From Bacteriovoracia bacterium (GTDB taxonomy: Bacteria > Bdellovibrionota > UBA1018 > JBFWNL01): DNA of 64,000 nucleotides. The translations under genes were made by a program, and so were the position numbers. The stretch is from contig JBFWNL010000005.1 of assembly GCA_050251055.1 (NCBI GenBank), positions 32,001-96,000 on the forward strand, written 5' to 3'. The notes under the pieces are model-generated. The model worked only from the letters and a program-made list of their open reading frames with translations, did no database searches and was not told where the DNA came from. Below, in pieces: positions 31,989-49,248 of the stretch (positions are counted from its first letter, which is position 1; each line of letters begins with the position of its first letter).

Positions 31989-33270
31989 GGCATCTCGGCT
32001 GCCCCCCGCGTATCGCAAGTCGCTCGCGCAAATGCGCGAAGTCGCGCGTATCTTGCGAAAACTGGGAGCTTCGGAAAAAAACCGCGTATTGGAGAAGATC
32101 GCGCGCGGCTTGGTCGCCCATTCGGCGGTCATTCTGAAAGAAAATGCGAAGGATCTGAAGGCGCTAGACAAGAAAGCGACCCCGGCTTTCCGGGACCGGC
32201 TTACGTTGGATGAAAAACGGTTGGCCGCGATGGCGGAAAGTTTGCGGCAAGTCGCCGCGCTGCCCGATCCGGTCGGCGAGCTCGTGGATCGATCCACGCT
32301 TCCGAACGGCTTGAAGCTTCGGCGGGTGCGCGCACCGCTCGGGGTGATCTTCATGATTTACGAATCGCGCCCCAACGTCGCGACGGAAGCATTTTCGCTG
32401 GCGTTCAAGGCGGGGAACGCGGCGATTTTGCGCGGCGGCCGCGAGTCGGCCCGAACGGTGGCGGCGCTTTACCAGCTGATCGCGGATGCCTTGGCCGAAG
32501 AGGGCCTGCCGCGACTGGCCGCTTGGGGCGTGACGGATCCCGATCGCGCGCTCGTGAAGGCGTTGCTGAGGGAACGCGCCGCGATCGATGTCGTGGTCCC
32601 GCGCGGGGGGGACCGCCTGATCGAGTTTGTCGTGAACGAATCGCTGATCCCCGTGATAAAAAACGATCGTGGCTTGTGCCACGTCTACCTACACGAGGAT
32701 TTGGCCGGCGAGGCGAAGCTTTCCGAGATGGGGTTGCGGATCGCGGTGAACGCAAAAACCCAGCGCCCGGGAGTTTGTAATTCAATGGAGACCCTGCTTG
32801 TGCACGAGAAGTGCGCGGTGGAGCTGTTGCCGCGCATCTATGACGCGATGGCGGCGGTTTCGGTCGAATGGCGAGCTTGCCCCCGTACGAAAGCGATTTT
32901 GAAGGGGCGCTCCCGGGTGATCGCGGCCAAGTCCGCAGATTGGGATACCGAGCACCTGGACTTCATCATGAATTGCCGCGTGGTGAATTCGCTGGCGGAG
33001 GCGATTGGGCACATTGAGAAGCACGGCTCGCGGCATTCGGAGTGCATCGTGACGGGCAGTCATCCGGCGGCGGCGCTCTTTCAGGAAGAAATCGATGCGG
33101 CGGCAGTGTATTGGAATGCTTCCACGCGTTTTACCGACGGCTTCGAGTTTGGCTTGGGTGGAGAGCTGGGGATCAGCACTCAAAAACTGCACGTGCGAGG
33201 CCCGGTGGGGTTGCGCGAGTTGACTTGTCCACGCTGGGTGATCGAAGGCGAAGGCCAAATCCGAAGTTAG
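31981..33270 (+). CDS. proA: glutamate-5-semialdehyde dehydrogenase
   Basis: YESRPNV, VCNSMETLL, NASTRFTDG, GISTQKLHVRGP. Confidence 0.96.
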   Translation: MAKASRLPPAYRKSLAQMREVARILRKLGASEKNRVLEKIARGLVAHSAVILKENAKDLKALDKKATPAFRDRLTLDEKRLAAMAESLRQVAALPDPVGELVDRSTLPNGLKLRRVRAPLGVIFMIYESRPNVATEAFSLAFKAGNAAILRGGRESARTVAALYQLIADALAEEGLPRLAAWGVTDPDRALVKALLRERAAIDVVVPRGGDRLIEFVVNESLIPVIKNDRGLCHVYLHEDLAGEAKLSEMGLRIAVNAKTQRPGVCNSMETLLVHEKCAVELLPRIYDAMAAVSVEWRACPRTKAILKGRSRVIAAKSADWDTEHLDFIMNCRVVNSLAEAIGHIEKHGSRHSECIVTGSHPAAALFQEEIDAAAVYWNASTRFTDGFEFGLGGELGISTQKLHVRGPVGLRELTCPRWVIEGEGQIRS

Positions 33271-33288
33271 CGGGGCAGAGGAAAGGTT

Positions 33289-34113
33289 ATGGGTACGAGT
33301 ATCACTACGAATTTGGGTATTTTGGGCATTGGAAAAATGGGCGAGGCGTTGGTGGGTGGGCTTCAGCAAACCCCGGGATTCGAGAAGACCTGGAAGATGA
33401 TGGCGAGCCGCCGCTCGGAAGAGGCCGCCCGAGCCGTGAGCCAGAAGCTTGGGATCCCGGTCGTGACGGACAACCGGGAGCTCGTGAAGAAAAACCGTAT
33501 CGTGATCTTAAGCGTGAAGCCGCATCACGCTCAGGCGGTGCTTGAATCGGTGGCGAAGGATTTTACCAGCGACCATGTACTGGTTTCCATCTGCGCTTCG
33601 GTGCGAATATCGCAGATGAAGAAATGGAGCGGCGGCAAACCCCATCTAATTCGTTGTATGCCTAACACTCCCTGCTTAATCGGCGAGGGGATGACGGCGA
33701 TCTCGACGGCGGGCGGGAAGGACTCCGTGAGCGACGTGAAACGCGTGGAGCAGATTTTCCGCACGGTCGGAAAGACCGTCCTGGTTGAGGAGTCGCTGAT
33801 GGACGGCGTGACGGGGCTCAGTGGCTGTGGCCCGGCCTATGTTTATTTGGTGGTCGAAGCGCTTAGCGAAGCGGGCGTTAAGGTTGGCCTGCCTCGGCAA
33901 ACGGCGACCTTACTCGCGGCCCAGACGCTGGCGGGCGCGGCGAAGATGGTGCTGGAGCGGGGCGAACATCCGGCGGCGCTGAAAGATGAGGTGACGACTC
34001 CGGCCGGCTGTACGATCGACGGATTGATGGCGCTGGAAGAGGGAAAACTGCGGGTGACTTTGATTAAAGCGGTACTCGCGGCCGCCAAGCGTAGCGCGAG
34101 TTTGAGCGAATAA
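33289..34113 (+). CDS. proC: pyrroline-5-carboxylate reductase
   Basis: GIGKMG, RCMPNTP, SGCGPAY, VTTPAGCT. Confidence 0.96.
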   Translation: MGTSITTNLGILGIGKMGEALVGGLQQTPGFEKTWKMMASRRSEEAARAVSQKLGIPVVTDNRELVKKNRIVILSVKPHHAQAVLESVAKDFTSDHVLVSICASVRISQMKKWSGGKPHLIRCMPNTPCLIGEGMTAISTAGGKDSVSDVKRVEQIFRTVGKTVLVEESLMDGVTGLSGCGPAYVYLVVEALSEAGVKVGLPRQTATLLAAQTLAGAAKMVLERGEHPAALKDEVTTPAGCTIDGLMALEEGKLRVTLIKAVLAAAKRSASLSE

Positions 34114-34123
34114 GGCGAGGTGC

Positions 34124-34879
34124 GTGATGGATTGGCTAGACATCGGAGTTAGCTTGCTCACCCTGACGGCGCTGGAAATCGTCCTCGGGATCGACAATAT
34201 TATTTTCATCACGATCTTGGCCGGCCGGCTTCCCGTCGCCGAGCAGGCGAAAGCGCGTCGTTTGGGGCTACTGATGGCGCTCGTTTCCCGCATCATCCTG
34301 TTGATGGGGATTAGCTGGGTGGTCAAGCTGACCCAGCCGCTCTTTGCGGTCTTCGGACGCGATATCTCGATGCGGGATTTAATCTTGATTCTCGGTGGCT
34401 TGTTCCTGATGTGGAAGGCCATGACCGAGATTTACCACAAGGTGGAGGCCAAGGATGCCCACGGGGCGCACGCTCCCGCCAAGGGCACGGGGACTCCGCC
34501 CGTCACGTCCGGAAAACCGAAACTGGGCGGAATCATCACCCAGATCATGATCGTTGACGTCGTCTTCTCGCTCGATTCAGTCATCACCGCCGTGGGCACC
34601 GCTAAGCACCTGGGCGTAATGGTGGCGGCCGTGATCATCTCGGTGCTGGGCATGATGATCTTCGCCCGTGCCATCGGCGATTTCGTCGAGCGCCGGCCGA
34701 GCATCAAGATCCTCGCGCTTTCATTCCTGGTCATGATCGGAACCCTGCTCGTGGCCGAAGGCTTCGGTGAGCATCTCAACAAGGGTTACGTCTACTTCGG
34801 CATGGCTTTCGCGCTCGTGATCGAGATGCTGAATATGCGATTCGAAAAGAAAACGGCCATCGCGGCCAAAGGGAGATAA
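34124..34879 (+). CDS. TerC family membrane protein
   Basis: [23 protein letters not shown]. Confidence 0.93.
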
Positions 34880-34880
34880 C

Positions 34881-36284
34881 ATGAGTCAGCAGAAGTTTCG
34901 CACCGAGAAAGACACTTTCGGCCCCATCGAGGTACCGGCCGACCGGCTCTGGGGCGCGCAGACCCAGCGGTCACTGAAGTACTTTTCTATTTCCACGGAA
35001 AAGATGCCACTTGCGCTCGTGTATGCGCTGGCCACGGTGAAGAAAGCGGCCGCGATCGTGAACCGTGAAAACGGTTCGCTCGACGCGAAGAAGTCGGAGG
35101 CGATCGTGAAGGCCGCCGACGAGGCGATCGCCGGAAAGCTCGATGCCGAGTTTCCCTTGTTCGTCTGGCAGACCGGGAGCGGCACCCAGTCGAACATGAA
35201 TCTCAACGAGGTCCTGGCCAATCGCGCGAGCGAGCTGATGGGCGGCGAGCGTGGGGAGGCCCGCAAGGTGCACCCCAACGACGACGTGAATAAAGGCCAA
35301 AGCTCCAACGACGTGTTTCCTACTTCCATGCACGTGGCTGCCGCGGCCGCCGTGGTAGGTTCGGTCATTCCGTCGGTGAAGGCTCTGCGCGATACGTTGC
35401 AGGGCAAGGCGAAAAGTTTTCGCGATATCGTGAAGATCGGTCGCACGCACCTGCAGGACGCGACGCCGCTGACGCTTGGCCAGGAGTTCTCGGGCTACGC
35501 CTCGCAGCTGGAACACGGGCTCGCGCACCTGGAGCGCTCGCTTCCGCATCTTTACGAGCTCGCGCTCGGCGGAACCGCGGTCGGCACGGGCCTGAACGCC
35601 CCGAAAGGTTACGCCGAGCGCGTGGCTAAGGAGATCGCTCATTTGACGGGATTGCCGTTCGTGACCGCTCCCAATAAGTTCGAGGCCCTGGCCGCGAACG
35701 ACGCCCTCGTGAGCGCGCACGGGTCGTTGAAGGTGGTGGCGACCGCCCTGTTTAAAATCGCCAACGACATCCGGTGGCTTTCGTCGGGTCCCCGCTCGGG
35801 GTTGGGTGAAATCACGATTCCGGAGAACGAGCCGGGTAGCTCGATCATGCCGGGAAAGGTGAATCCCACCCAGTGTGAGGCCATGACCATGCTCTGCGCC
35901 CAGATCATGGGTAACGACGTGGCGGTGACGATGGGGGGGGCCTCCGGGAATTTCGAACTCAACGTCTATAAACCACTCATGATTCAAAACTTCCTACAGT
36001 CCTGCCGATTGTTGGCGGATGGCTGCCGCAGCTTCCGGGAGCATTGCGCGGAAGGGATCGAAGCAAATCGCGCGCGGATCGATGAAAACCTCAAGCGTTC
36101 GTTAATGCTGGTGACCGCGCTCAATCCCCACATCGGGTACGACAATGCGGCTAAGATCGCTAAAAAGGCGCACAAAGACGGGACGACGCTGAAAGAGGCG
36201 GCGATGGCGTTGGGTTTGGTGACGGCCGAGCAATTTGATCAGTGGATCAAGCCCGAACAAATGGTCGGCGAGATCAAGCTCTAA
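34881..36284 (+). CDS. fumC: class II fumarate hydratase
   Basis: [35 protein letters not shown]. Confidence 0.98.
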
Positions 36285-36298
36285 CGACTGGCTTCGGG

Positions 36299-39211
36299 TT
36301 ATTTTTCTTTTTCCGGTTCGGGCAAAGTAAACTGGCGGCCGGCGAGCGGGAACTTCACGTCTTTGGGCTGTAGGGCATCCGGCTTTTCGAGGCGCTTGAG
36401 TTCGGCCACATTGGCCGCGATCTTGTTGCCGATGAACGGCCGAATCTGCAGGAGCACGACTTTGTCCTCGACCATCGCCCACTCCATGTCCCACTTGCGG
36501 CTCTCGAGCTTGGGGTAGGCTTGCATCAGGTGCTTCTGGATCCCGTCGCCCTTGCCGGCGAGCGCCTTGGCGTGGGCTTCGGGAATAATCGGATCCAGGC
36601 CTTGCACCGGTACGTCGGCAAATCCTCCGTCCGGCAGCAGCACTTTGCGCGTAGGAGCATAGGCCCGGCGTACCCGGTTCACCGTGCCCGCGTGGCGGGA
36701 AACCAGGACTTCCTCGGGATTGTACTCTCCGTTGACGACCGTGATCCCCACGCCTTCGTTGGCGGCGATCATGACCTCGTCCTGGTATTCCTCATTCTGC
36801 GTACTGCCCACGACCATGACGCCGGCCTTAGTTCCGTTGATCCCGATCTGGACGACCACCGAGGGATACACGTCCCACGGGTTTTCGATCAGGTCTTGTC
36901 GCCAGGTCATCGCCTTGCGCGTGAACGGGGACGCCCAGACGTCCTTGATGGCTTGTACCACCTTGGCCAATCCCACGACGTTAGGGATGGTTTCATTGAG
37001 GCCTGCGCCCACGAACTGGGGCAAATCTTCGGCATTCGTATCGCTGCGGACGAATACGCCGCGGCCCAAGAATGGCTCCTTGCTGAGGGTCTGGGCGATG
37101 AAAGCGATCAATTCGGGTTTGAGCTCGATCGTGCGGATACGCTGACGGATCTTCTCTAGCGCGGCCACCTTCTTGGCCATCCCTTCGTCGCTGGTGTCGC
37201 TGAGGTCAAACTCTTCGAATATCTTACGGGCATCTTCGAGGATTCCCGTCTCCTTCATATGTGCGTAGTAGACGCCGAAGGGGAGGACAAAGGCTTGCGG
37301 GACATGATCCGGGAAGACGGAAGCCAGTTCGCCTTGGCCGCAGGCTTTGCCGCCCGCCACGATGCCACTGTCGGTCATGCGCAGTTGCTCCAGAAACAGC
37401 GGGCGATTGTATTTCATCATATCGGCTGGAATCTGGATGCGGGTACGTTTCTGTTCCCGTACCTTGTTATAGACTTTCCAGGTATCGATCTCCGCGGGCG
37501 TTGCTTGGTCGAAGCGTTTTATGCTGACCTCGCCGTTGGGCAGCGAGATATAGAGCACATCTTGGTTTTCGAGGCCGCGCAGCTTGTCTACCAGGGACTG
37601 GGGAATGACCGCGTTGGGGAGTCCGTGGTTGCTGGCCAGCAGCTGCACGTGCGAAATGGTACTGCCCGAATCGGTCGTCAGTACGCCAGCCACTTTGCTG
37701 AGAGAAGGGGGGGTCTTGGTCAGCACGTAAATGTAGTCGGGCCGCCAGTTATAGTTCTCGTCGTTAGCTTCCGCCTCCGCGGTGACCTTGAGGATGCCGC
37801 GCGCGATGCCTGGGTTTAGCATTCGATGGGGAGCGGAGATTTCTTCCGTCCCGATAGTGATTTTACGGCCCGAATAGGTTTGAACCAGCGTGTGGATCTG
37901 GGCGAGGAAGTTTGTGAGCTGTAACAGCACGGTGGATCGCAGCGAGTCGTCGATGAACTTGTCCGCTTGGGGCACGTACTCTTTGTATTTGGCGAGTACG
38001 GGGTTGAACATCGCGCGGAAATTACGTACGCCTTCCTGGACGCTACCCTCCACCTTTTCGATGAGCATGAGGACTTCGGCCGGATCCACGAGCTGCCCAC
38101 CCCCACCCAGACTCGTGTTTTTTAGGGTGTCTCGGCGGATCAGCCCGATGGACTCCGCGCTTTTCGTCAAGGCGTCAACCATCGCTTGAATGTCGGCAAG
38201 CGAGAGTACCGTGCGGGTGTCTTGTAGACGTCCGATGAGGGCGCCACCTAGGGAAAAAGTCGCGGTTTGTAGCTGATGCAGCAGATCGATTTGCTCGATC
38301 GCGCAATCGATATCGCGGTCGATGCGGCAATTCGTCGTAGCGGCCCGGGCGGCGTTCCCGGCTTTGACGGAGGCATCGGCGAGGGCCGTCAGGTTGTCGC
38401 GTATGGCGTCCAGCTTGCCCGTGAGCGCTTTCGCGCTGGGCTTATCCATGAGGAACTTGGCGTGAGTCTGATAGTTATCGAGCGCCGAGCGCGCCGCTCC
38501 CGTCACATTATAGTGGATATAGAACGTGGCTACGTCTCCGCCCCCGAAGAGCGATTCGAGTTGGTTTTGGATCGTAGCCGCCATCTGGGTCACGCTGTCG
38601 TTGAGGCCCTGCGCTTTGCGCTGGGCGATGAATTTCTTCACGCGCTCGATCGTGAGAAGAGATGGCTGCTGGTGGATTTCCAGGCGAATATCCATGAATC
38701 CAGGCGCCCCTTGAATAACCACCGCGTTGGCCCGCATAGTGTTGATCATGCGGTTATCGTGGTTATGATAGATCGATCCCCCCAATAGGTAGCCCGTCAA
38801 GAGCGCATCGTCGGCGAGGGGTTGCCCGTTCTTTGTGGAGATCGTTTGATTCAATGTTTGGGCGAGCGTGATAAAGTCGCTTTCTGCGTTCGAATAAGTG
38901 AATTTGATCGGAAGCCACGGCATGCCCCACTCTTCCTGCATGCGTAGGTATTCCTGCAGGATCATTTCGCGGGGCTCCGGGTGGGCAGCCATCTGGGTGA
39001 GCAGCGTGTAGGCGGGGAACCCTTTGGCCTGGAATTCGGCGTAACCGCGTTGCAGGTCGGAGCTCGGCTGTCCGCTTGTCTTGGCGGCCTCGTACGCCCG
39101 GATCATTCGTTTGTTCCACTCTTGCTCGGCGGGGCCGGCTGCAGCCACCCCGGAAACGAAAAAGGCGACGGCGGTGATGATTAGGCCTGGAATCGCTTTC
39201 GACTTTGACAT
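36299..39211 (-). CDS. exported PEP/pyruvate-binding-domain dikinase-like protein, paralog B (phospho-His domain then C-terminal ATP-grasp)
   Basis: Signal peptide; LTTDSGSTISHVQLLA; GGK, LPFG, VRSDTNAEDL..GAGLNET, WAS, WDMEWA, LQIRP. Confidence 0.88.
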   Translation of the reverse strand: MSKSKAIPGLIITAVAFFVSGVAAAGPAEQEWNKRMIRAYEAAKTSGQPSSDLQRGYAEFQAKGFPAYTLLTQMAAHPEPREMILQEYLRMQEEWGMPWLPIKFTYSNAESDFITLAQTLNQTISTKNGQPLADDALLTGYLLGGSIYHNHDNRMINTMRANAVVIQGAPGFMDIRLEIHQQPSLLTIERVKKFIAQRKAQGLNDSVTQMAATIQNQLESLFGGGDVATFYIHYNVTGAARSALDNYQTHAKFLMDKPSAKALTGKLDAIRDNLTALADASVKAGNAARAATTNCRIDRDIDCAIEQIDLLHQLQTATFSLGGALIGRLQDTRTVLSLADIQAMVDALTKSAESIGLIRRDTLKNTSLGGGGQLVDPAEVLMLIEKVEGSVQEGVRNFRAMFNPVLAKYKEYVPQADKFIDDSLRSTVLLQLTNFLAQIHTLVQTYSGRKITIGTEEISAPHRMLNPGIARGILKVTAEAEANDENYNWRPDYIYVLTKTPPSLSKVAGVLTTDSGSTISHVQLLASNHGLPNAVIPQSLVDKLRGLENQDVLYISLPNGEVSIKRFDQATPAEIDTWKVYNKVREQKRTRIQIPADMMKYNRPLFLEQLRMTDSGIVAGGKACGQGELASVFPDHVPQAFVLPFGVYYAHMKETGILEDARKIFEEFDLSDTSDEGMAKKVAALEKIRQRIRTIELKPELIAFIAQTLSKEPFLGRGVFVRSDTNAEDLPQFVGAGLNETIPNVVGLAKVVQAIKDVWASPFTRKAMTWRQDLIENPWDVYPSVVVQIGINGTKAGVMVVGSTQNEEYQDEVMIAANEGVGITVVNGEYNPEEVLVSRHAGTVNRVRRAYAPTRKVLLPDGGFADVPVQGLDPIIPEAHAKALAGKGDGIQKHLMQAYPKLESRKWDMEWAMVEDKVVLLQIRPFIGNKIAANVAELKRLEKPDALQPKDVKFPLAGRQFTLPEPEKEK

Positions 39212-39212
39212 T

Positions 39213-39854
39213 CTATCCTCGTAGTCCGATCACGCAAAGGACCGCTATTTTCAAAAGAGTCGTCAGGAAGTCTTGGCCGACCCGGGCGGCGCTCAGTAAA
39301 ATAAATTCGTCTTTCCACTGAACAATTAGAGGGCGCACCACCTCGAACATAAAGAAGCGGACGGTTCCATTATAGACGAGGTCAAAAGCCAGCCGGGTAA
39401 AGGTAATCACGGCCGCTCCGCTCGAGATCATCGCGAGCAGGCCCTGGCTCATCAGCGAGTTCACTACCCCGAACGCCATGAAGTATTGGAAGCGGTGCCG
39501 GCGCTTCAAGATGAAGTAGATCGGCCCCCCCAGTACGGAAGCGAAGAGGGTCATGAAGATGTTGATCATGGACTGCCGGTGGATGCGATAGTGCCCGTCG
39601 GGAGAGGTAAGAATGAAGGTGTTGTTTTCTGGCTCGGACGTCATGGGCGCGGCGATAGAGCGGGAGATGAATTCGGACGCGGTGGTGATGGTCACGTTCA
39701 CGCCCGTGAGGAGCAAGATGCTGGAGCGATTCGTCCACCAGCTTTGCATCCAGTCGCCGGCGGGACCGGTGATCACGGCAGGCAGCATGCCTTGAAAGGC
39801 GAGCCAAGCCGCCACCCAGGCGTGCCGACGCGAATTTTTTCTCACACCACCCAT
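39213..39854 (-). CDS. hypothetical membrane protein
   Basis: Several hydrophobic segments; 1-nt gap to the downstream dikinase. Confidence 0.65.
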   Translation of the reverse strand: MGGVRKNSRRHAWVAAWLAFQGMLPAVITGPAGDWMQSWWTNRSSILLLTGVNVTITTASEFISRSIAAPMTSEPENNTFILTSPDGHYRIHRQSMINIFMTLFASVLGGPIYFILKRRHRFQYFMAFGVVNSLMSQGLLAMISSGAAVITFTRLAFDLVYNGTVRFFMFEVVRPLIVQWKDEFILLSAARVGQDFLTTLLKIAVLCVIGLRG

Positions 39855-39929
39855 TTCCGCTCCTCAGACCCTATGCTTCACTCTCGACCCCGCGAGTAAC
39901 ACGCAGCGTCAAAAACTCAAAACTTTTTT

Positions 39930-40802
39930 TTATTTTCCTTCCCGTCGTCGGCGGTCTTCCTCTTCTTGTTTTTCCACTTCCTGTTCGATCTTGCGCTTGA
40001 GCTCTTCGTCGTAGTTCGGCTCCATCGGCTTCAACCGGTCGCGCGAATCCGTGGGCTGCGTCGAGGCGCTGTTTTCCGGGATGTAGATAATGTCGACCGG
40101 CGGGATGGGGCGAAAACGGGGACCGCGATCGACGAACTCCTTCAGCTCACCGACGACGCTTTCCGAGTAGGTAATCTTTATGTCCCGGGCGAAATCCACT
40201 ACGCAACGGGACGTGCCGGTCTCGCTGCGGCCGTCATGGTTACAAATCCGATCTAGCCGTACGCCATCGACGTCGGTGCTCTCGTAAGATTGTCCGCACA
40301 TCGTGCCGGTTCCGTCGGCCTTGATCACCCACTCGGGGCGGTTGCCGGTCATGGCGACCGTGCCGATCTCGTCGATGCCGAGCTTGGCAAAGTCGTAGAT
40401 GTACGTGCTCCCGTCGGCCACGTTGACCTGGGCCTTGAGGCTTCCGTCCGGGTTCCGCAAGGTGTCGCCGCGCAGGGTGTACTGTTTGTTTTTGCCCAGC
40501 GCCGAAGCAGCGAGTTTCCATTCCGCTTCCGTCGGCAGGCGCTTGCCAACGGCGGTACAGTAAGCCTTGGCCTGTTCGAAGTTCATGCGCATGGCTTTTT
40601 CCGGTCGTCGCGCGCTCGCATTGGTTTGCGCGACGTTCGTACGTCCCGTTTCCCAGATGTCGATATAGAAAGGTTTCGGCGCCCGCACGAGCACCATGTC
40701 GACGAACTCCGCGGCCGAAGCCGACAGCGGCAAACACGCACTCAGGACAAAGGCCATGGCGAAGCGGCCGGTCAAGTGATTCGCGAGCTGGATTTGTTTC
40801 AT
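39930..40802 (-). CDS. exported FGE-sulfatase/SUMF1-fold (C-type-lectin-like) protein
   Basis: FYIDIWE, AKAYC..GKRLPTEAEW, MTGNRPEWV, RCV; GAGGAG RBS. Confidence 0.82.
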   Translation of the reverse strand: MKQIQLANHLTGRFAMAFVLSACLPLSASAAEFVDMVLVRAPKPFYIDIWETGRTNVAQTNASARRPEKAMRMNFEQAKAYCTAVGKRLPTEAEWKLAASALGKNKQYTLRGDTLRNPDGSLKAQVNVADGSTYIYDFAKLGIDEIGTVAMTGNRPEWVIKADGTGTMCGQSYESTDVDGVRLDRICNHDGRSETGTSRCVVDFARDIKITYSESVVGELKEFVDRGPRFRPIPPVDIIYIPENSASTQPTDSRDRLKPMEPNYDEELKRKIEQEVEKQEEEDRRRREGK

Positions 40803-40839
40803 AAGTACACTCTCCTCGAAAAAAAATTGCATCGTTCGC

Positions 40840-43785
40840 TCAGGGCTGGGCGGCCCGCTCCAAGTTAAACTCTCGGCTGTTCAGGGGAAATTTCACGACC
40901 TTGGCCTTTACGATTGGTTTTTCCAATACCCGCAGGCCGGCGACGTTGGCAGCAATTTTATTGCCGATGAATGGTCGGATCTGCAGGAGCGCGAGCTTAT
41001 CCTCCACCATCGCCCACTCCATATCCCACTTCAGGTTCTTGGCGTTCGGGTAGCTGCGGGTCAGGTGGCGCTGGATTTGGTCGCCGACGGAAGCAAGTTG
41101 CTTGGCGTGCTCGTCCGGGATGATGGGATCGAGCCCCTGGACGGGCTGTTCGGCGAACCCGCCTTCGGGCAACAGCACCTTGCGGGTTGGGGCATATGCC
41201 TTGCGGACACGGTTTACCGTGCCCGCTTTGCGGGAAACGATGACTTCCTCGGGATTGTACTCGCCGTTCACGACGGTGATGCCCACGCCTTCATTGGCGG
41301 CGATGATTACCTCGTCGTCGAAGTCCTCAGTGGTCGTGCTACCGACGACCATAACCCCGGCCTTGGTTCCGTTGATTCCGATCTGGATCACCACGGAGGG
41401 ATACACGTCCCACGGGTTCTCGATGAGGTCTTGACGCCACGTGAGCGCTTTTTTTGTGAACGGCGAAGCCCAGACTTGCAGGATCGCCTTGATGACATTC
41501 TCCAGACCCACGACGTTCGGAATGGTTTCATTGAGACCCGCGCCTACGAATTGCGGCAGGTCCTCCGCGTTCGTGTCGCTACGCACGAAGACACCGTGCC
41601 CGGAATAAGGCGCCTTCAGCAGGAAGTTGGCGAGGGTTTTGATGATCTCCGGTTTGAGTTGGACTTTGGTCTTGATGAGTTCGCGGATGCGGTCGAGAGC
41701 GGCGGACTTCTTCGCCATGGCATCATCACTCCGGTCGTTGGCATCGAAACTCTTGAACATTGCCTCGATCTGGGCTTGTACGCCGGATTCGCGCATGTGC
41801 TCGTAGTAGACACCGAAGGGAAGCACGATCCCGTAAGGAACGTGGTTCGGGAAAACATGGGCCAATTCCCCTTGTCCGCAGGCCTTGCCGCCGGCGACGA
41901 TTCCGCGATCGGCCATGCGCAGCTGCTCGATTCGAAGCGGCGCCCGATACTCGTAAAGACCGGCGGGAACGGGCAAGCGCATGCGCTTTTCTTCGCGAAC
42001 CTGGTTGTAGCTTTTCCACACCTTGATTTCATCGGCCGTCGCGTTTGCGAACGCTTTAATCTCCACCTGGCCGTTGGGCAGGGAGATCAGCAGCACGTCC
42101 TGACCTGCCATTGGCTCCAAGCGGGCGACCAATGAGGGAGTGATGACGACATTTGGGATGCCGTGATTGCTGGCCAGGAGTTGCACGTGCGAGATAGTGC
42201 TGCCGGAATCGGTGGTGAGCAGACCCGCTACTTTGCTTAAGGAAGCCGGAGTCTTCGTCAGTACGTAAATGCGATCGGGGTGCCAGTTGTAGTTTTCATC
42301 TTGGGTTTGCTCGGCGGTCGGGATTACCAAGGTTCCGCGGGCGATGCCGGGATTCAACATGCGGTAGGCCGCGCCGATTTCCACGCCGTTTAGGATAATG
42401 CGGCTGCCGCTGTGATTCTGGAGGACGGTGTGCATTTGCGCCAAAAGATTGGTCAAGGGGATCAGGATCGTCCCTCGCACCGTGTCGTCGATAAAGCGAT
42501 CCGCCTGCGGTACGTACTCTTTGTAGCGCGCGAGGATCGGATTGTACATTTGGCGAAGGTTCTTCACGCCGTCTTGGGTGGCGGCTTCGAGTTTTTCGAT
42601 CAGAGCCAAGGCTTCTTCCACGCCGACGAGGTCTCCGGACTTGGGTTTTTCCCCCCAAGTGAACACCCGAAGGGTTTCCGGCTTGAGGAAACCAATCGAA
42701 ATTGCGGCCTTGGTCAGCGACTCGGTGATTACCCGCAAATCACCTAGCGACAGGGTGCCCTGGCTCTCCTGTAAGCGGCCGAGGTAGGAATTGGCGAGGG
42801 AGAAGATCGCCGTTTGCAGTTGGCGCAGCAGGTCCATCTGCTCGATGGAGCAATCGACCACGTAATCGATCACGCAGCCCTGGGCCCGCACCGTGCGCGC
42901 CTGGCTCGAAGCCTTCATGGCCGCATCCGCTAGGGCAGTGAGCGCGGAATTGATCTCGTCCGCGCGGGAGTTCAAGTCGGAGGCCTTGACTTTGCCGGCA
43001 AGAAATCCTGCCTGTACTTTGTATGCGGCGAATGCGGCCTTGGTAGCTGCGTCGAGCTGGAAGCGCGCGACGTACCGATCCGCGCTGCCGCCGCCGAAGA
43101 GCGCCTCAAGCTGCTCCAGGATCTCTTGGGCCGCCTGGATCACTTCCGCTCGCGCACCCTTCGCCTTTTGTTCGCTGATAAAACGCTTGGTCTGCTCGAT
43201 GGTGAGCAGTGATGGCTGCTGGTGAATCTCGTAACGGGTGCTGAGGAATGCGGGCTCGACCTTCGCGAGCGCGTGCGCAAGTATACGCACGGTGTTCACC
43301 GGCCCGGAATCCGCGTTGTGGAAGATGGTTCCGGCGAACAAGTACGCCGTGAGCAGGCGGTCGTCCGGCAGCGGGCTGCCGTCATGGCTCGATATGCTCT
43401 GATTCATGACAGAGCCTGTCGTGATGGCGTCGTATTCAGAATGCTGGTACGCCCACCGGCCGGCGAGCCAAGGCAGACCCCAGTCTTCTTGTTTGCGCAG
43501 GTACTCCTGGACGATCATTTCTCGGGGTTCCTTATGCCCGGCCATCTCGATGAGCGTGTCGTACGCGGGAAAACCCTGGGCCCGAAACTCGTCGATACCT
43601 TTTTGGATCTCCGGCGGCGTTCCCCACTTCGGATCCGACGGGTTGCGTTTGAGGGGTTCACGCTTGTAAGCGGCGATGAGCTTTTTATTCCACTCGATTT
43701 CCTTCGGTCCCGCCCAAGACGCGGTCGGTCCGAAGGCCGTGGCCATCATCAAACTCGCGGCGATGAAGCGTTCCCGAAAAAGCAT
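40840..43785 (-). CDS. exported PEP/pyruvate-binding-domain dikinase-like protein, paralog A
   Basis: Signal peptide ending SWA; same motifs as paralog B with long identical stretches. Confidence 0.88.
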   Translation of the reverse strand: MLFRERFIAASLMMATAFGPTASWAGPKEIEWNKKLIAAYKREPLKRNPSDPKWGTPPEIQKGIDEFRAQGFPAYDTLIEMAGHKEPREMIVQEYLRKQEDWGLPWLAGRWAYQHSEYDAITTGSVMNQSISSHDGSPLPDDRLLTAYLFAGTIFHNADSGPVNTVRILAHALAKVEPAFLSTRYEIHQQPSLLTIEQTKRFISEQKAKGARAEVIQAAQEILEQLEALFGGGSADRYVARFQLDAATKAAFAAYKVQAGFLAGKVKASDLNSRADEINSALTALADAAMKASSQARTVRAQGCVIDYVVDCSIEQMDLLRQLQTAIFSLANSYLGRLQESQGTLSLGDLRVITESLTKAAISIGFLKPETLRVFTWGEKPKSGDLVGVEEALALIEKLEAATQDGVKNLRQMYNPILARYKEYVPQADRFIDDTVRGTILIPLTNLLAQMHTVLQNHSGSRIILNGVEIGAAYRMLNPGIARGTLVIPTAEQTQDENYNWHPDRIYVLTKTPASLSKVAGLLTTDSGSTISHVQLLASNHGIPNVVITPSLVARLEPMAGQDVLLISLPNGQVEIKAFANATADEIKVWKSYNQVREEKRMRLPVPAGLYEYRAPLRIEQLRMADRGIVAGGKACGQGELAHVFPNHVPYGIVLPFGVYYEHMRESGVQAQIEAMFKSFDANDRSDDAMAKKSAALDRIRELIKTKVQLKPEIIKTLANFLLKAPYSGHGVFVRSDTNAEDLPQFVGAGLNETIPNVVGLENVIKAILQVWASPFTKKALTWRQDLIENPWDVYPSVVIQIGINGTKAGVMVVGSTTTEDFDDEVIIAANEGVGITVVNGEYNPEEVIVSRKAGTVNRVRKAYAPTRKVLLPEGGFAEQPVQGLDPIIPDEHAKQLASVGDQIQRHLTRSYPNAKNLKWDMEWAMVEDKLALLQIRPFIGNKIAANVAGLRVLEKPIVKAKVVKFPLNSREFNLERAAQP

Positions 43786-43787
43786 GA

Positions 43788-45983
43788 TTACTTTACGTCC
43801 TCCGCTTCGTGGGCGCCGGCGGGTGCCTCACGCCGTTTCAACTTGAATTGCGTGGTCATTTGATCCACCAGGCTGCACCAGTTCTCGGAATAGAGGCTAC
43901 CCGGCGGGTAATCCTTCACGCTGAAAGCGGGCGAGGGGTCCCCGTAGATCGGCTCGTAGGAGGTTTCTCGCGTCGGCGAGTATCCCTTCGGACACTCTTC
44001 CTTCTCATCGGCGCGATCGAGGACGCCTTCGGTGCTCGTCACGCACACGGTTCGCTGAGTATCCGACTTCACGCGCAGATGCTTGAAAAGGACCCGCATG
44101 TTTGGGTACTGGGATTTTTCTTTTTTCAGTTCGGCTTCGCGGCGCTGGTAGGCGCCTTCGCATAGGGCTTCGTCCGTTGCCTTGGATCCCGGCGATGCCC
44201 AAGCTTTCACGATCACTTGCTGGTCTTGCCCGTATGTCGACGTGCTCGTAAGCCAGGTGCGCGTGTCGGCCACGCATTCCAGCTCTCGCCACAATTGTTC
44301 CTCGAAAAGCTCGGCGCACTTGCCGCCTTCGTTCAGGAAGTAGGCCTTGTTGTCCTTCATGTAGCGCTCGCACTTGTACTTGTGCGCGGGCTTTTGGCCG
44401 ATGATGCGGGTTACGTTCGTTTGGTGCACTCCCAGGTACGGGACATCCAAGAGCTTCGCAGCCGTGCCTTCCTTCTCGGGCGTTTCGCCCACGAAGCCTA
44501 AGATGCAGGCGCCCGTAGGATCGAGGCTATTGCGCACGCGCGCGGCTTTTTCCTCGCCACCGTAGCCGTTGCCCATCACCTCGAGCGGGATAAAGTTTTT
44601 CTCGCACGCCAGGTTCTGGCGCTGGAGATCGGCGTACGCGCTCGTGCCGGTCGTCGAGACGAGGAAAATAGTCACGTCGTTGGCGATCACGAAGTCTTCA
44701 AAGCACTGCTTGTTTTCCGGCGTCCGCCAAGCATCTAGCGTGCCATGCATGTCCGCCAGCAGCACCGGATGCTGGCATTTGTAATCGTACGAGGTCCCGC
44801 CGATGAAGACGGGGGGTTGCCCGACGCGCTCGTCCTTTATTAGTTCGCCATTTTTCAAAAACCCGATCCGCGCGCGCTCCAAAGGATGTGTTTTGTCAAG
44901 GCTCTGAAATTGAGCGAGGGTGAGTTTTTTCTTGCTGACGTAACCCGTCCCGACGGCCCCGAGGTCCAGGTGGGTGCCGTCTTCGAAGACTAGGGCTAAG
45001 GAGACTTCGCTGGCCCGTGCGCCCGCGGGGAGCGAGAATTCTAGCTCCAGCTGGCGGGGAGAAATGATCTGGCCAGCTGGACCGACCGGAGAACTCACGC
45101 CCGAGGTGCCGCTGCTGGAATAGCCAGAACCCGTGACGACCCGAGGGGCGGACGAGCCACCGCCGTAGGTGCCGCTGCCCGAACCGGAAGGAATTACGAT
45201 CGCGGTGGAGCTGCGGTCCGTGGAACTCGAGGAGTTCGAGTAATAGTAAGTTCGATGGCTACGTTCGTAGGTCGTGGTCGTCTGCTTGCCGCCTTTGGCG
45301 AGGACCAGGGCGCGCACGGGGCCCTGTACATCGCTCGTGAGTTGGATCCGGATATCTTCGGCGTAATCGACGACACAGCGGACGGTAGCGCCACTATCCC
45401 AAGTGCTTTTACAGATCTTGTCCAGGGTCACATCGGCGAGCGCGAACTGGTAATGTCCCCCGCACTGCGCGGGTTTTCCGTCGGGTCCTAAGACCCACTC
45501 GTTGCGGTTTCCGGTCATCCCGACCGCGCCGATCGCGTCGACTCCGGCGTGATTATAGTCCGTTACGTCAACGCTTGAGCCACCACCGGTGTGTCCGACG
45601 TTCGCCTGCGGCTGACCTGGCTTGAACTCGAGTTTGTCGCCTTCCAGGGTATAGGACTTGTTTTGCCCGAGGTTGGACCCCGCCGTCAGCCACTCCGCCT
45701 GGGTAGGGATGCGCTTGCCCTGAGCCGCGCAGTATTGCACGGCAGTTTCATATTCCAGCCGCGGGGGATTGATCCCAGAACGTCCGGTCGGTACGTTGGC
45801 TTCTGGAAGCACGTACGCTAGCTCGCTGATGCTGGCCTCGAAGATATCCATATAGAAGGAGGCTTCGGGAGCGTTCACGAAAGTCATGTCTTGGAAGGAT
45901 TTGGGGGGTGACTGGGGAGTCACTTGACCGACCAAAGTTACGGGTAACAAGGTCCCAAAAAATTTAGCGATGACACTATGCAT
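43788..45983 (-). CDS. FGE/SUMF1-fold domain + Ser/Gly linker + HAD-like domain protein
   Basis: FYMDIFE, YC..GKRIPTQAEW, MTGNRNEWV; LLADMHGTL, FLVST, K, FVGET. Confidence 0.75.
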   Translation of the reverse strand: MHSVIAKFFGTLLPVTLVGQVTPQSPPKSFQDMTFVNAPEASFYMDIFEASISELAYVLPEANVPTGRSGINPPRLEYETAVQYCAAQGKRIPTQAEWLTAGSNLGQNKSYTLEGDKLEFKPGQPQANVGHTGGGSSVDVTDYNHAGVDAIGAVGMTGNRNEWVLGPDGKPAQCGGHYQFALADVTLDKICKSTWDSGATVRCVVDYAEDIRIQLTSDVQGPVRALVLAKGGKQTTTTYERSHRTYYYSNSSSSTDRSSTAIVIPSGSGSGTYGGGSSAPRVVTGSGYSSSGTSGVSSPVGPAGQIISPRQLELEFSLPAGARASEVSLALVFEDGTHLDLGAVGTGYVSKKKLTLAQFQSLDKTHPLERARIGFLKNGELIKDERVGQPPVFIGGTSYDYKCQHPVLLADMHGTLDAWRTPENKQCFEDFVIANDVTIFLVSTTGTSAYADLQRQNLACEKNFIPLEVMGNGYGGEEKAARVRNSLDPTGACILGFVGETPEKEGTAAKLLDVPYLGVHQTNVTRIIGQKPAHKYKCERYMKDNKAYFLNEGGKCAELFEEQLWRELECVADTRTWLTSTSTYGQDQQVIVKAWASPGSKATDEALCEGAYQRREAELKKEKSQYPNMRVLFKHLRVKSDTQRTVCVTSTEGVLDRADEKEECPKGYSPTRETSYEPIYGDPSPAFSVKDYPPGSLYSENWCSLVDQMTTQFKLKRREAPAGAHEAEDVK

Positions 45984-46219
45984 CCGCTCCCTCAATCGTA
46001 TTTAAATTTGATTAAACTCTCTCTAACTCGCTGCGTTGTACCCATGGATAACGCATGCAGTCAAGATGGAAACTCCTTTTCATTTGAGTGGTCTGGTTGA
46101 TTTTTTTGACACACTGCGTGAACTATGATTTAAGGGCGCCGGACTCAATTTTACTCAGTTATTTGGCAGCTTTTGCCACCAGTTTGCCGCTGGCTTGAGA
46201 GACGGATTGGAGAGAAAAG

Positions 46220-49078
46220 GTGACCTCAAATATCGCACGTCTATTGGTGTTTGGTTTGGCCTTACAGGGACTCGGTTGCGCGTTCAAGTCGGCTCCGGAG
46301 AGCGCCACGCCGGCGGTTTCGCCTCCTGCCGTGAGCGAAAATTCAACGTTGTTTGATACTTTTTATGCCCAGGCCCTGCGGGACGCCCAGGCGAAACGCC
46401 CGATCCTTGAAAATCCGTATTCCCTGATTCCGCAGGCGGCTCCGTCATACTTCGATGCTCAATTCGCCGAGATTGCCAACGACACGCCTGGCGATCCGTT
46501 GGAACAAAAGGCGCTGATGGATAAGGCGATGGCGTTGGGCGCCCGCTTTGGGGAAATCGACGGTACGAGCGAAGGGGTGCGCATCGGCGTTCTGCACGCC
46601 CAGAAAAAGGCGGAGATCGCGGCGGCCAAAGGAATCTATGATCGCTTCTTCGCCGATCAAGACGGTCGCGCGCTTTTCGAGAAGATCAGTTCCACGGTCG
46701 CTACTTCTCCAAATCTCAAGACGCTCGTCACTAGCACCACGGGCGAACAGAAAGACTCCGCTGCCTATAAAGTGGGGTACTTGTTCGGCAAGCAGCATGG
46801 GGACGCCACTGGTCGCAACATGCAGGGCAAAGAAAAAGGGGCGGCTGACGCGCAGTCGGGCAAGGACGACGCCGTTCGTCGTCAAGCACGCAGCGTAGGT
46901 GAGCCGGCCGGCAAGGCCCGCGCCCTCAAGTCGTATCAAGACGACCGTGATTTCAAAAACGTGAGGCAGACGGCCGATGGGCGTAGGCCTCAGGCGAGCC
47001 CGCCGGTCCTTCCGCCGGATGCCGAGGTGACCAAGCCGGATTGGACGACCGTGAAGGGTTTCAACCCCAATCCCCGCCGTCCTTTCGGTAGCATCGAACT
47101 TGATAAGGCGTACTTCGACGCCTACGCAGCGGCTTTTCAAAGTTCTGCGGAGAAGTCCTACGTTAAGGCGTTGGCGGACGCGGTGCCAGCCTTAACCAAG
47201 AGCGTGGAGTTCTGGACCGCGAAGCACTACCAAAACGCCGGCTTGGCCGATCTCATCGGCAAAGATACCCTTGTTTTTGCGGGCTATTTGGACGCATACC
47301 TCGTGGCGAAAGATGCGGCATACCTCGAGGAAGTCAAAAAAGGATTCGAAAGCGCGATGGATGCGGCGATGACGGAGTCGCTGAATCGCATGACCGAGGA
47401 AGAAGAAAAGCGGGCCCACGATGCGGAGCTTCGGCGCCTCATGCGCGAGCCAGATGTCCGCTTCGAGAATATCGTGATGGAAGACGTCGATAGCGACGGT
47501 TTGCACGCTCCGGGAGGCAGCTTCGGAGTAGCGGTTCAACTGGCCAACTACGGCGAAGCCTTCGCGGCGGGCGATTACCAGCTCTCGATGAAGGATGTTG
47601 ATGGCGCTGAATTCACTTCCGATGGGCAGCTGGTGCGCGCGCTGCCGGCCGGGGAAAAACGAAGCCGAAACACCATCACGGGTATCTTTAAATTCAAGAT
47701 TTCTCCGAACGCGACGGTGTCCAAGCGTCATGCCTTTAGTTTCGAGTTGAAGGATAGAAAAGGGGTAGTGATCGCGAGCCGCAACGGTGAGCTCGCGGTG
47801 ACGTTCCCGTTCGAAATCGCGGAAACCGCGTTGCCCAAGAACCTGGTGGCGGGCAATGCCACCACCTTGGACTTTCGCGTGACGCGAACGGCGCGGACCG
47901 AAGCGAAGGGATTGCAGGTTACCTTGACCGAAACTACGGGGGATACCGTGATCGCGGTTCCGAGCGCGACCTTCGATTCCGCGGGCGGCGCGGTAACTTC
48001 CTTGCGGTTTGACGTGAAGGCCGGTCTTACCCGGCATTCCGACGAGCGGCAGTTTAAGTTGGAAATCCGCCAGGGCGCGCAGCTGGTGGGTCTAAAGGAA
48101 GTGAAGCTCGCCACCGTGCTTGATTACTTCCCCGATCCCAATGCGCGCATTTTAGTGCTCGCTTCATCGGCCGACGAGATCAAGCGGTATTACGGACTGG
48201 CTCAGCAAATGGGAATCTCCCTGTCGGTTTGGAATCTGACGCAAAACTCGACCTTGAGCGCCGAAGCTTGGCGCGCGTTCGTGGATCGCGGTATTTTCTA
48301 CCCTTCGCCACCGGATGTGACGGCTAAGGACATTTCTCGGCCTCAGCGCGACGCCGCCGTGAGCGTGTTCCAGCAGCTGGTGCGTGGATACCTGGGCGCC
48401 GGGGGTTGGCTCGTGTATGGCGATCAGGCGGGCTCTCCGCTGAAGACCTGGCTGGATCACGCGACGGGGCCTGAATTGAAGGAAACGAACGAAAAGGCCA
48501 AGGCCGCTCGCGGCCGTGCCTTTGCGCCTTCGGTGTTCGCGCCGTTTCCGTACGGCAACTTGCCCGAGATTTTCGAGGGCAACTATTTCGACGTCAACCG
48601 TCCGGAACTCGCCCAGTATCACATCGGCCGGGTTAAAGGGATGAGCGGTCTCACCGACGCGCAGCTGCAGAATATCATCAAGGACTTCCTAGTTGTTTCA
48701 GCTCCGATCGAGAAAAAAGTGCAACAGCTGGCCGCCGCCGCGAAGGCGCGTGACCAGGCGGGCGTCGATCGCTGGAAGACGGTTATCTTGCGTGAACTAA
48801 CGAAAGAGATGAACGACGACAAGCAAATGAACGGGCAGTGGAGCGTGTTCAACACCGAAAAACAGGAAGTTCAGTTTGACACTTCCAAGTTGCTGCTGGT
48901 TCGCTTCATGAACGCCTTTTCGCAAGTGAAAGACGTGGCGGAGCTTCGCGCCGTTTGCGATCTCTACAAGCCGCTGTACGACGCCGCGGGTAAGCTCGGC
49001 GGCACGGCCAGCCGCAAGCAGAAGGTACGCGCGCTGATCAAGCCTTTGGAAGACGCCCAAAAGAAGTTGTCCAAGTAA
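46220..49078 (+). CDS. large lipoprotein (helical N-terminus, probable Ig-like central domains)
   Basis: Lipobox GLGC, 952-aa ORF, GxxxG/AY-rich helices then beta-rich region. Confidence 0.78.
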   Translation: MTSNIARLLVFGLALQGLGCAFKSAPESATPAVSPPAVSENSTLFDTFYAQALRDAQAKRPILENPYSLIPQAAPSYFDAQFAEIANDTPGDPLEQKALMDKAMALGARFGEIDGTSEGVRIGVLHAQKKAEIAAAKGIYDRFFADQDGRALFEKISSTVATSPNLKTLVTSTTGEQKDSAAYKVGYLFGKQHGDATGRNMQGKEKGAADAQSGKDDAVRRQARSVGEPAGKARALKSYQDDRDFKNVRQTADGRRPQASPPVLPPDAEVTKPDWTTVKGFNPNPRRPFGSIELDKAYFDAYAAAFQSSAEKSYVKALADAVPALTKSVEFWTAKHYQNAGLADLIGKDTLVFAGYLDAYLVAKDAAYLEEVKKGFESAMDAAMTESLNRMTEEEEKRAHDAELRRLMREPDVRFENIVMEDVDSDGLHAPGGSFGVAVQLANYGEAFAAGDYQLSMKDVDGAEFTSDGQLVRALPAGEKRSRNTITGIFKFKISPNATVSKRHAFSFELKDRKGVVIASRNGELAVTFPFEIAETALPKNLVAGNATTLDFRVTRTARTEAKGLQVTLTETTGDTVIAVPSATFDSAGGAVTSLRFDVKAGLTRHSDERQFKLEIRQGAQLVGLKEVKLATVLDYFPDPNARILVLASSADEIKRYYGLAQQMGISLSVWNLTQNSTLSAEAWRAFVDRGIFYPSPPDVTAKDISRPQRDAAVSVFQQLVRGYLGAGGWLVYGDQAGSPLKTWLDHATGPELKETNEKAKAARGRAFAPSVFAPFPYGNLPEIFEGNYFDVNRPELAQYHIGRVKGMSGLTDAQLQNIIKDFLVVSAPIEKKVQQLAAAAKARDQAGVDRWKTVILRELTKEMNDDKQMNGQWSVFNTEKQEVQFDTSKLLLVRFMNAFSQVKDVAELRAVCDLYKPLYDAAGKLGGTASRKQKVRALIKPLEDAQKKLSK

Positions 49079-49180: not shown

Positions 49181-49196
49181 TGGCATTCGCTTTGCT
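49181..49196 (+). promoter_or_regulatory. sigma54 promoter
   Basis: TGGCAT-TCGCT-TTGCT, exact GG-N10-GC spacing. Confidence 0.7.
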
Positions 49197-49248
49197 TAGT
49201 TCGACCCCGGTTGAACAACTGGAAATGGAAATGGAAGGCAAGAGTTGT

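Follow-up and report, generated by a model that had tools for sequence, protein, structure and literature searches.

The window considered here, a stretch of 64,000 nucleotides from contig JBFWNL010000005.1 of a Bacteriovoracia bacterium, carries an operon whose two largest genes, dikA and dikB, encode dikinase-like enzymes with signal-peptide-like starts. At a probability that we put at roughly 55%, dikA and dikB are phosphotransferases of the swivelling-histidine (His) kind that are exported by Sec and work outside the cytoplasm with target partners, which are FGE-like proteins in the window and leucine-rich repeat (LRR) proteins in relatives. The observations behind this reading are the architecture of the two enzymes, the conservation of their residues, their export signals, the linkage of their genes to conserved partners and the split arrangement found in relatives. 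As judged from sequence, the family to which they belong is a real, uncharacterised and unnamed branch of exported dikinases that is widespread in bacteria.

The two enzymes, dikA (40840-43785, minus strand, 981 amino acids) and dikB (36299-39211, minus strand, 970 amino acids), are 60% identical in pairwise alignment. In dikA, a signal-peptide-like segment (residues 1-25, positions 43711-43785) is followed by an N-domain of 20 helices (residues 27-462, 42400-43707), a swivelling His domain (residues 464-600, 41986-42396) in which the codon of His533 occupies 42187-42189, and an ATP-grasp domain (residues 612-947, 40945-41952), all on the minus strand. The limits in dikB were carried over from dikA by pairwise alignment and give, after the signal peptide and on the same strand, an N-domain (residues 27-450, 37862-39133), a His domain (residues 452-588, 37448-37858; His521 codon at 37649-37651) and an ATP-grasp domain (residues 600-934, 36410-37414). 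The PPDK_N family of Pfam is matched at the C-terminus of both proteins, at residues 631-939 of dikA (E 1e-39) and 619-930 of dikB (E 5.6e-37), and the motif TISHVQLLA fixes the catalytic His at 533 and 521, respectively. Alignment by phmmer places the TDSGSTISH stretch of dikA on the TDEGGRTSH stretch of phosphoenolpyruvate (PEP) synthase. Pfam lists no PEP/pyruvate TIM-barrel family for either protein at E<=0.1. NCBIfam models for PEP synthase, rifampin phosphotransferase (RPH), PigC and RedH match the C-terminal third only, with scores far under their cut-offs, and searches of Protein Data Bank (PDB) sequences again match only that third. The initial annotation of this DNA had described two paralogs of 970-981 amino acids with an intact phospho-His motif near H521/H533, a C-terminal ATP-grasp and no pyruvate-binding barrel, and all of this holds. 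It had also named a full-length match to a characterised family as an outcome that would speak against it, and such families are matched by the C-terminal third alone.

With a PPDK_N-type ATP-grasp and a mobile domain bearing a conserved T/S-S-H His, the catalytic core is assigned to the swivelling-His dikinase superfamily. An AlphaFold2 model of dikA, built from 116 family members, reaches a predicted local distance difference score (pLDDT) of 89.7 and a predicted template modelling score (pTM) of 0.86. In the family alignment (dikA numbering), H533, K634, R735, D737, E741, D742, E923, Q935 and R937 are each invariant in 116/116 rows. Because the phospho-His and the ATP/Mg residues are kept without exception, dikA and dikB are predicted to be working enzymes and not relics. 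The N-domain harbors a polar cluster described as invariant and consisting of W106, R167, R184, His188 (within an R-x-x-I-H-x-x-P motif) and R437; by count, W106 and H188 are kept in 116/116 rows, R167 in 114/116 and R184 in 108/116.

Both enzymes begin, by eye, with a K/R-bearing n-region and a hydrophobic core, followed by an A-x-A-like site and then GP. A crude signal-peptide rule was applied, in which a 10-residue Kyte-Doolittle window has to reach 2.0 or more with at least one K/R ahead of it, a rule that is weak for any single protein. While dikB passes with a score of 2.97, dikA falls just under the threshold at 1.88. Across full-length homologs 102 of the 128 listed pass the rule; among the 26 that fail, 11 have a strongly hydrophobic start without K/R and several more start exactly at a conserved motif, which suggests that the starts of the latter are miscalled. 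The argument for predicted export thus rests on the recurrence of such starts among homologs that are just 25-40% identical. In addition, a pair of cysteines flanking a hairpin, Cys304 and Cys312, is kept in 8 of the 11 first alignment rows, which represent the close clade, and p300 and p735, the neighbouring gene products described below, are Cys-rich with signal-like N-terminal segments. Of the Sec-type signal peptides announced in the initial annotation, the recurring start features stand, although the test was crude and dikA remained under its threshold.

The genes for dikA and dikB are each paired with a gene for a protein of the FGE-sulfatase type (PF03781), p735 with dikA and p300 with dikB. 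The p735 gene (43788-45995, minus strand) encodes 735 amino acids from a TTG start, with an alternative ATG start at 45983, and its product is a predicted exported protein with an FGE-sulfatase domain in the N-terminal ca. 240 amino acids, a Ser/Gly/Thr-rich linker and a Cys-rich C-terminal region, with 15 Cys in all. The linker, encoded at window positions 44900-45290 (residues ~232-300), is a long Ser/Thr/Gly/Tyr-rich stretch of low complexity, and a 420-amino-acid homolog (P0262) has the same layout of FGE-like domain, linker and Cys-rich region. The p300 gene (39930-40832, minus strand) is a 300-codon open reading frame (ORF) with a likelier start at 40802 (MKQIQL...), and encodes a predicted exported, possibly lipidated protein (LSAC motif) with a charged C-terminal tail. 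PF03781 is matched by p300 with 46.7 bits against a cut-off of 23.3 (E 4.1e-12; residues 80-174, profile positions 93-194 of 255) and by p735 with 35.2 bits against the same cut-off (E 1.4e-8; residues 81-169, profile positions 97-190 of 255). Residues 34-231 of p735 are 42% identical to p300, and the core of p300, core motifs included, aligns with canonical FGE-family proteins. Proteins of the p300 type are few, with 3 close homologs among 10 matches. The FGE-sulfatase domain adopts a C-type-lectin-like fold. That the partners are exported, as had been proposed, agrees with the signal-like starts of p300 and p735, while their description as lectin-fold proteins stands in so far as both exceed the cut-off of PF03781, the fold itself being general knowledge and the profile only partially covered.

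The fifth gene of the operon, p213 (39213-39854, minus strand), encodes a small integral membrane protein of 213 amino acids with 3 to 5 hydrophobic segments by hydropathy and no match in Pfam, NCBIfam or PADLOC, so that no family is assigned; the initial annotation had given no description of it. It was considered as a half-MFS (major facilitator superfamily) or TLC-like supplier of ATP, a proposal that was dropped, the profile comparison by hhalign of the p213 family (3 sequences) with TLC-like proteins (6 sequences) giving a probability of 0.2%. In the ESM Atlas, p213 shows MFS-like features at 0.94, a value to be read with the fact that about one third of shuffled proteins behave alike. 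None of the five operon proteins matches CBM45, CBM20 or another carbohydrate-binding family in Pfam or NCBIfam.

The pairing of a dikinase-like gene with an FGE-like gene is not confined to the window. Among 401 genomes of the phylum, 6 have a dikinase-like match at E<=1e-40, the window's genome included. Two of these, G291 and G251, carry an FGE-sulfatase-domain gene directly downstream of a full-length dikinase-like gene, its product being 39% identical to p300 in G291 (Pfam E 4.1e-10) and ca. 30% identical in G251 (Pfam E 2.6e-6), so that two further families repeat the pairing that the window shows twice. Flanking the G291 pair (L097, contig C46, 7164-8225 and 12012-12863), a strictosidine-synthase-like/SGL beta-propeller protein and a subtilase are encoded, each beginning with a signal-like segment.

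A different arrangement is found in G027 and G222, where short enzymes of 523 and 493 amino acids, respectively, contain a signal peptide, a His domain and an ATP-grasp. Homologs of p213 (36% and 33% identity) are encoded beside the short enzymes of G027 and G222, and so are LRR proteins: five tandem paralogs of 533-561 amino acids in G222 (L099, contig C28, 1-8713) and one of 735 amino acids in G027 (L088, contig C27, 6248-8455). The C-terminal half of the LRR proteins is homologous to residues 112-441 of dikA (hhalign probability 95.6%, E 1.3e-8, 277 columns), with a second run against the helical N-domain of dikA giving a probability of 74% over 108 columns. Since the split forms fuse the helical domain to LRR repeats, this domain would be a separable working partner of the catalytic module. 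By the same split-and-fused arrangement, recognition modules, LRR in the relatives and FGE-like in the window, would travel with the helical domain. LRR modules usually bind proteins. The conserved neighbours of the close clade are an FGE-like protein or a small membrane protein, unlike those of the wider family. Together, the duplicated FGE pairing and the LRR-fused split forms suggest that targeting in this probably predatory lineage is modular.

The family at large is extensive. An exhaustive protein search returned 6037 cluster representatives under a threshold of E<=1e-3, of which 263 reach E<=1e-30; lengths of 940-1050 amino acids prevail among the top 150, where many alignments start near residue 80 and run through to the C-terminus. 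In species-representative genomes at least 574 relatives were confirmed (574/600 among the matches listed), and the taxa among these matches include Acidobacteriota, Desulfobacterota, Gamma- and Betaproteobacteria, Bacteroidota, Myxococcota, Gemmatimonadota and Spirochaetales. Cultured, non-pathogenic carriers are among them, for instance strains of Parahaliea, Pseudomaricurvus, Formosa and Neolewinella, which opens the family to direct testing. Where names are given to database members, these read 'hypothetical protein', 'PEP/pyruvate-binding domain-containing protein' or 'phosphoenolpyruvate synthase, partial'. No paper on an exported or periplasmic dikinase or PPDK_N family, or on a link of such a family to TLC transporters, was found in the open-access literature searched. 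The operon had initially been put forward as a candidate new system; it does not stand in isolation but is one clade within a widespread, unnamed family that has other typical neighbours.

These neighbours emerged from a survey of homolog neighbourhoods, as had been recommended at the outset, in which the ORFs of 80 distant family loci were clustered, the dikinase-like ORF itself being recovered in 76 of the 80. A signal-peptide-bearing protein of the Beta-lactamase2 family is encoded in 71/80 distant loci and lies directly downstream on the same strand in 58. These 58 beta-lactamase-fold proteins keep the SxxK (100%/100%), SxN (97%/97%) and KSG (97%/95%/97%) motifs. A second cluster, found in 38/80 distant loci, consists of membrane proteins of the TLC-type ATP/ADP exchanger. 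Four of the six cluster members tested exceed the 21-bit cut-off of Pfam TLC (PF03219), with 83.6, 58, 49.1 and 26.1 bits; the other two have weak MFS matches only, one of them with HEAT repeats. Restricting the count to the 35 loci flanked by 5 kb or more on each side gives a beta-lactamase-fold gene in 31 and a TLC gene in 21. A three-gene module was thus noted in distant loci, made up of an exported dikinase-like protein of ca. 980 amino acids, a serine beta-lactamase-fold protein and a TLC-type exchanger, some of the latter HEAT-fused. Most of the distant members have an additional N-terminal Cys motif, RGPF..IRWFC.DG, which is not seen in the window's clade. Searches by tblastn at 1e-3 with p300, p735 and the 952-amino-acid protein encoded next to the operon found these in none of the 80 distant loci, a result in which divergence may hide them.

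The textbook view of the bacterial periplasm is that it contains no ATP. The requirement for ATP outside the producer's cytoplasm, already recognised in the initial annotation, is a real puzzle, to which the TLC genes adjoining distant members suggest an answer in 38 of 80 loci and in none of the close-clade loci examined. An exchanger swapping ATP for ADP beside an exported ATP-using enzyme would be a natural solution, and the TLC exchanger encoded next door is the likely ATP supplier in the wider family, an argument from linkage and not proof. The window's genome has one TLC-like ORF (419 amino acids, 40.3 bits; contig C7, ~151131-152390; L092, 1477-2736, minus strand), which is unlinked to the operon and 24% identical over ca. 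398 residues to a dikinase-linked TLC protein; PF03219 matches 0/14 control genomes. This ORF is flanked by an exported protein and by a gene that, by eye, resembles signal peptidase I. Of the 6 dikinase-positive genomes in the phylum, 4 contain a TLC match at E<=0.01, compared with 85 of the 395 others (one-sided Fisher p 0.024).

By homology with PEP synthase (PPS), pyruvate, phosphate dikinase (PPDK), RPH and glucan, water dikinase (GWD), the chemical steps can be proposed as follows. The C-terminal ATP-grasp would bind Mg-ATP, and the beta-phosphate would move to His533 (His521 in dikB) on the mobile domain. The phosphorylated His domain would then swing toward the N-terminal 20-helix domain, where an acceptor bound at that domain would receive the phosphate, with the helical polar cluster at hand. 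Genomic context would place the reaction outside the producer's cytoplasm, assign to the FGE-like (C-type-lectin-like) proteins, or to LRR proteins in split relatives, the selection or presentation of the target, and give p213 a part in anchoring or coupling the system at the inner membrane. In the wider family the ATP would be delivered by the TLC ATP/ADP exchanger encoded next door. As to the acceptor, we lean weakly toward a protein or a macromolecule bound to the envelope or to the prey surface, rather than a free starch-like glucan, because there is no carbohydrate module among the operon proteins and the companions are of a protein-recognition type.

Several observations weigh against this account. 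The hydrophobic core of dikA is below threshold, and one of five cytoplasmic-type controls, fumC, passes the crude signal rule falsely. In Pfam, the PEP-utilizers mobile domain is matched by dikA only weakly and below its cut-off (residues 515-553, E 0.0022) and by dikB not at all, the His domain being assigned from fold and motif. Fold searches gave the N-domain no structural relative that would point to an acceptor. The FGE match of the partners covers part of the profile and ends before its C-terminal third, which leaves any enzymatic activity of theirs putative. The window's genome encodes a third paralog (contig C1, 557631-560426; L087, 9500-12490; 996 amino acids, 40% identity) that has neither an FGE nor a p213 neighbour; it lies between thiolase/CoA-transferase genes and a 204-amino-acid ORF with an HtrA-like protease. 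No TLC gene is found near any close-clade locus examined, G222 and G251, which are among the phylum's six dikinase-positive genomes, lack a TLC match even at E<=0.01, and the co-occurrence of TLC and dikinase genes in the phylum, drawn from tiny numbers of related genomes, is suggestive at most.

The absence of a linked ATP transporter from the close-clade loci examined is what would be expected if dikA and dikB were secreted effectors, exported by Sec and then delivered into a prey or host cell, where the victim's ATP would serve to phosphorylate a molecule of the victim recognised by the FGE-like or LRR proteins. Bdellovibrionales are a group known for predation. Close-clade homologs bear source names from Bdellovibrionales metagenome-assembled genomes (among the best 120 of 1280 matches), which makes Bdellovibrionota the probable phylum, and the one to five LRR proteins beside the split forms would likewise suit an effector. 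However, the same signal-peptide architecture stands beside TLC exchangers in many phyla that are not known as predators, which argues for action in the periplasm of the producer itself; the surroundings of the operon showed no secretion-system genes, and the membrane partner p213 fits an envelope-resident system better. An effector role is regarded as unlikely.

Less probable again is that the two enzymes are bacterial counterparts of glucan, water dikinase, with a glycan as acceptor (periplasmic glucan, capsule, peptidoglycan sugar or prey polysaccharide) and lectin-fold partners that bind carbohydrate. The order of domains agrees with that of the central helical, His and ATP-binding domains of GWD1, and, according to sections of a 2026 paper, the central domain of GWD1 has 20 helices and no clear PDB equivalent, with RPH aligning best to its ATP domain (PMC13553574); the N-domain model of dikA also has 20 helices, and RPH is the top structural match here too. 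Nevertheless, the resemblance to GWD seen here is one of domain order, and kinship, for which the initial annotation had also cited look-alike motifs, would be putative, no GWD sequence or structure having appeared in sequence, profile or fold matches (the protein search covering the best 120 of 1280). A profile search of PDB sequences with the family returned no GWD chain, and the GWD1 entries 9HA9 and 9QVI were not among the fold-search matches of the N-domain, their inclusion in the libraries (entries to April 2026) not being established. None of the five proteins carries a carbohydrate-binding family in Pfam or NCBIfam, and the LRR fusions of the split forms suggest protein targets. Known members of the FGE family, furthermore, bind peptides or small thiols.

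A comparably doubtful and marginally weaker proposal is a periplasmic small-molecule phosphotransferase like RPH: an antibiotic, toxin or signal molecule would dock on the helical domain and, still outside the cytoplasm, be inactivated or activated by phosphorylation. In RPH, too, the substrate is bound by a helical domain, and RPH and PEP-synthase-like enzymes give the catalytic domain its best matches in both structure and sequence. Circular permutation of the order ATP-grasp, helical, His yields the order seen in dikA and dikB. A serine beta-lactamase-fold enzyme that retains SxxK, SxN and KSG, the constant neighbour of the wider family, would also suit this function. On the other hand, the N-domain did not match the RPH substrate domain in either fold search, which is a weak test, and partners of a protein-recognition type (FGE-like, LRR) would be unexpected.

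That the enzymes are cytoplasmic or inward-facing, using cytoplasmic ATP in the manner of PEP synthase, their N-termini being uncleaved anchors or start-codon artefacts, is very improbable: ATP-grasp enzymes are as a rule cytoplasmic, the hydrophobic core of dikA is modest (1.88) and its database version (P0001) begins at a later start codon and so lacks the n-region, but signal-like starts with K/R n-regions recur in 102/128 diverged homologs, positive charges come first, such that under the positive-inside rule governing anchor orientation even an uncleaved anchor would leave the body outside, the partners are exported, the Cys pair is clade-specific and TLC exchangers are linked in the wider family.

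Exported phosphotransferases with FGE-like or LRR target partners therefore remain the favoured interpretation of dikA and dikB, and a broader proposition can be attached to them. Many Gram-negative bacteria may run a periplasmic, ATP-driven phosphotransfer in which a TLC protein exports ATP, and an exported dikinase and a serine beta-lactamase-fold enzyme act on an envelope component or an incoming molecule; the window would represent an offshoot in a predatory lineage, with FGE or LRR modules re-aimed at a different, possibly prey-derived target. We consider this possible but tentative. That genes of a dikinase family are linked to those of ATP/ADP exchangers and of beta-lactamase-fold enzymes appears to be previously unreported. 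If the proposition were true, ATP-dependent covalent chemistry outside the cytoplasm would be common, and, if biochemistry agrees, periplasmic ATP-driven phosphotransfer would notably enlarge the picture of bacterial cell biology. It would also offer a testable function for the NTT/TLC transporters of free-living bacteria, whose genes are described in parts of a 2017 survey as unexpectedly common there, with a role that is not known (PMC5381601); the passages concerned do not mention periplasm or export for these proteins.

In the window, the five ORFs of the operon are all on the minus strand, co-oriented, within 36299-45995. Intergenic gaps, recomputed, are 2, 7 or 37, 75 and 1 nucleotides, the second depending on the choice of start for p300: the likelier start leaves the 37 nucleotides that the initial annotation had given together with the other three gaps, and the ORF-call start leaves 7. 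The guanine-plus-cytosine content is even over the operon region, and a scan for consensus promoters and terminators (35800-46400) gave fewer matches than in shuffles, none of them informative. A look for sequencing runs that contain this genome turned up two of DNA, perhaps those from which the assembly was made, and none of RNA. Converging on the 3' end of dikB are the housekeeping genes proB, proA, proC, a TerC-family membrane protein gene and class II fumarase (fumC), at 31203-36284 on the plus strand. Divergent from the operon, a 952-amino-acid ORF (46220-49078, plus strand) starts like a lipoprotein and matches nothing in Pfam or PADLOC, and the ORFs beyond it (49192-50085 and 50114-51112) have no Pfam family either. 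The 952-amino-acid protein had been considered as an NTT-HEAT protein, which was dropped in view of its lipoprotein-like start, lack of a membrane domain and lack of a Pfam match. A known defence system was likewise rejected, PADLOC matching none of the five operon proteins nor this neighbour.

Among known systems, the closest in organisation are the plant enzymes GWD1 and PWD. Sections of the 2026 paper describe potato GWD1 as two CBM45 modules followed by helical, His and ATP-binding domains (PMC13553574), and the order of His domain before C-terminal ATP-grasp, for which GWD had been invoked from the beginning, matches that of potato GWD1 after its CBM45 modules. According to the same sections, the plant enzymes share with dikA and dikB a helical domain, of ca. 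20 helices and without a clear PDB relative in GWD1, a His domain, a C-terminal PPDK_N-type ATP-binding domain and the lack of a PEP/pyruvate barrel (PMC13553574). They differ in possessing CBM45 or CBM20 modules and plastid targeting, whereas dikA and dikB are bacterial, have a signal peptide and are accompanied by FGE-like or LRR partners. That dikA and dikB work like GWD is plausible by analogy. With PEP synthase and PPDK, the two proteins share the PPDK_N nucleotide domain (TIGR01418, E 2.4e-36 on residues 620-939), a TSH-type phospho-His motif and a Mg-binding E/Q. They are, however, not PPS or PPDK, because the C-terminal PEP/pyruvate TIM barrel of these enzymes is missing; in addition, dikA and dikB have an extra helical domain of 430 amino acids, are predicted to be exported and reach NCBIfam scores of 125-131 bits against cut-offs of 598-740, over residues ~618-939 only.

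RPH and the PEP-synthase-like enzymes PigC, RedH and HpeI are cytoplasmic and are not known to have a signal peptide. Their order is permuted relative to dikA, RPH consisting of ATP-grasp, rifampin-binding and C-terminal His domains and dikA of helical, His and ATP-grasp domains, and their substrate domain is not matched by the N-domain of dikA. Owing to this permutation and to scores far under the cut-off (96 bits on NF041857 against 999), dikA and dikB are not RPH. The partners p300 and p735 resemble the FGE-sulfatase family (SUMF1/EgtB/PvdO/GldJ-GldK) in exceeding the PF03781 cut-off and in their aligning core motifs, and depart from it in that p300 matches ca. 100 of 255 profile positions; adjacency to a dikinase was not found as a known context of this domain in the literature searched. 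As for the TLC/NTT transporters of free-living bacteria, genes of this family adjoin distant dikinase-like members, whereas the operon of dikA and dikB has none and the single TLC-like ORF of the genome is on another contig. By these comparisons, dikA and dikB form a new, predicted exported branch of a known kind of enzyme, housed in a modular system with lectin-fold or LRR partners.

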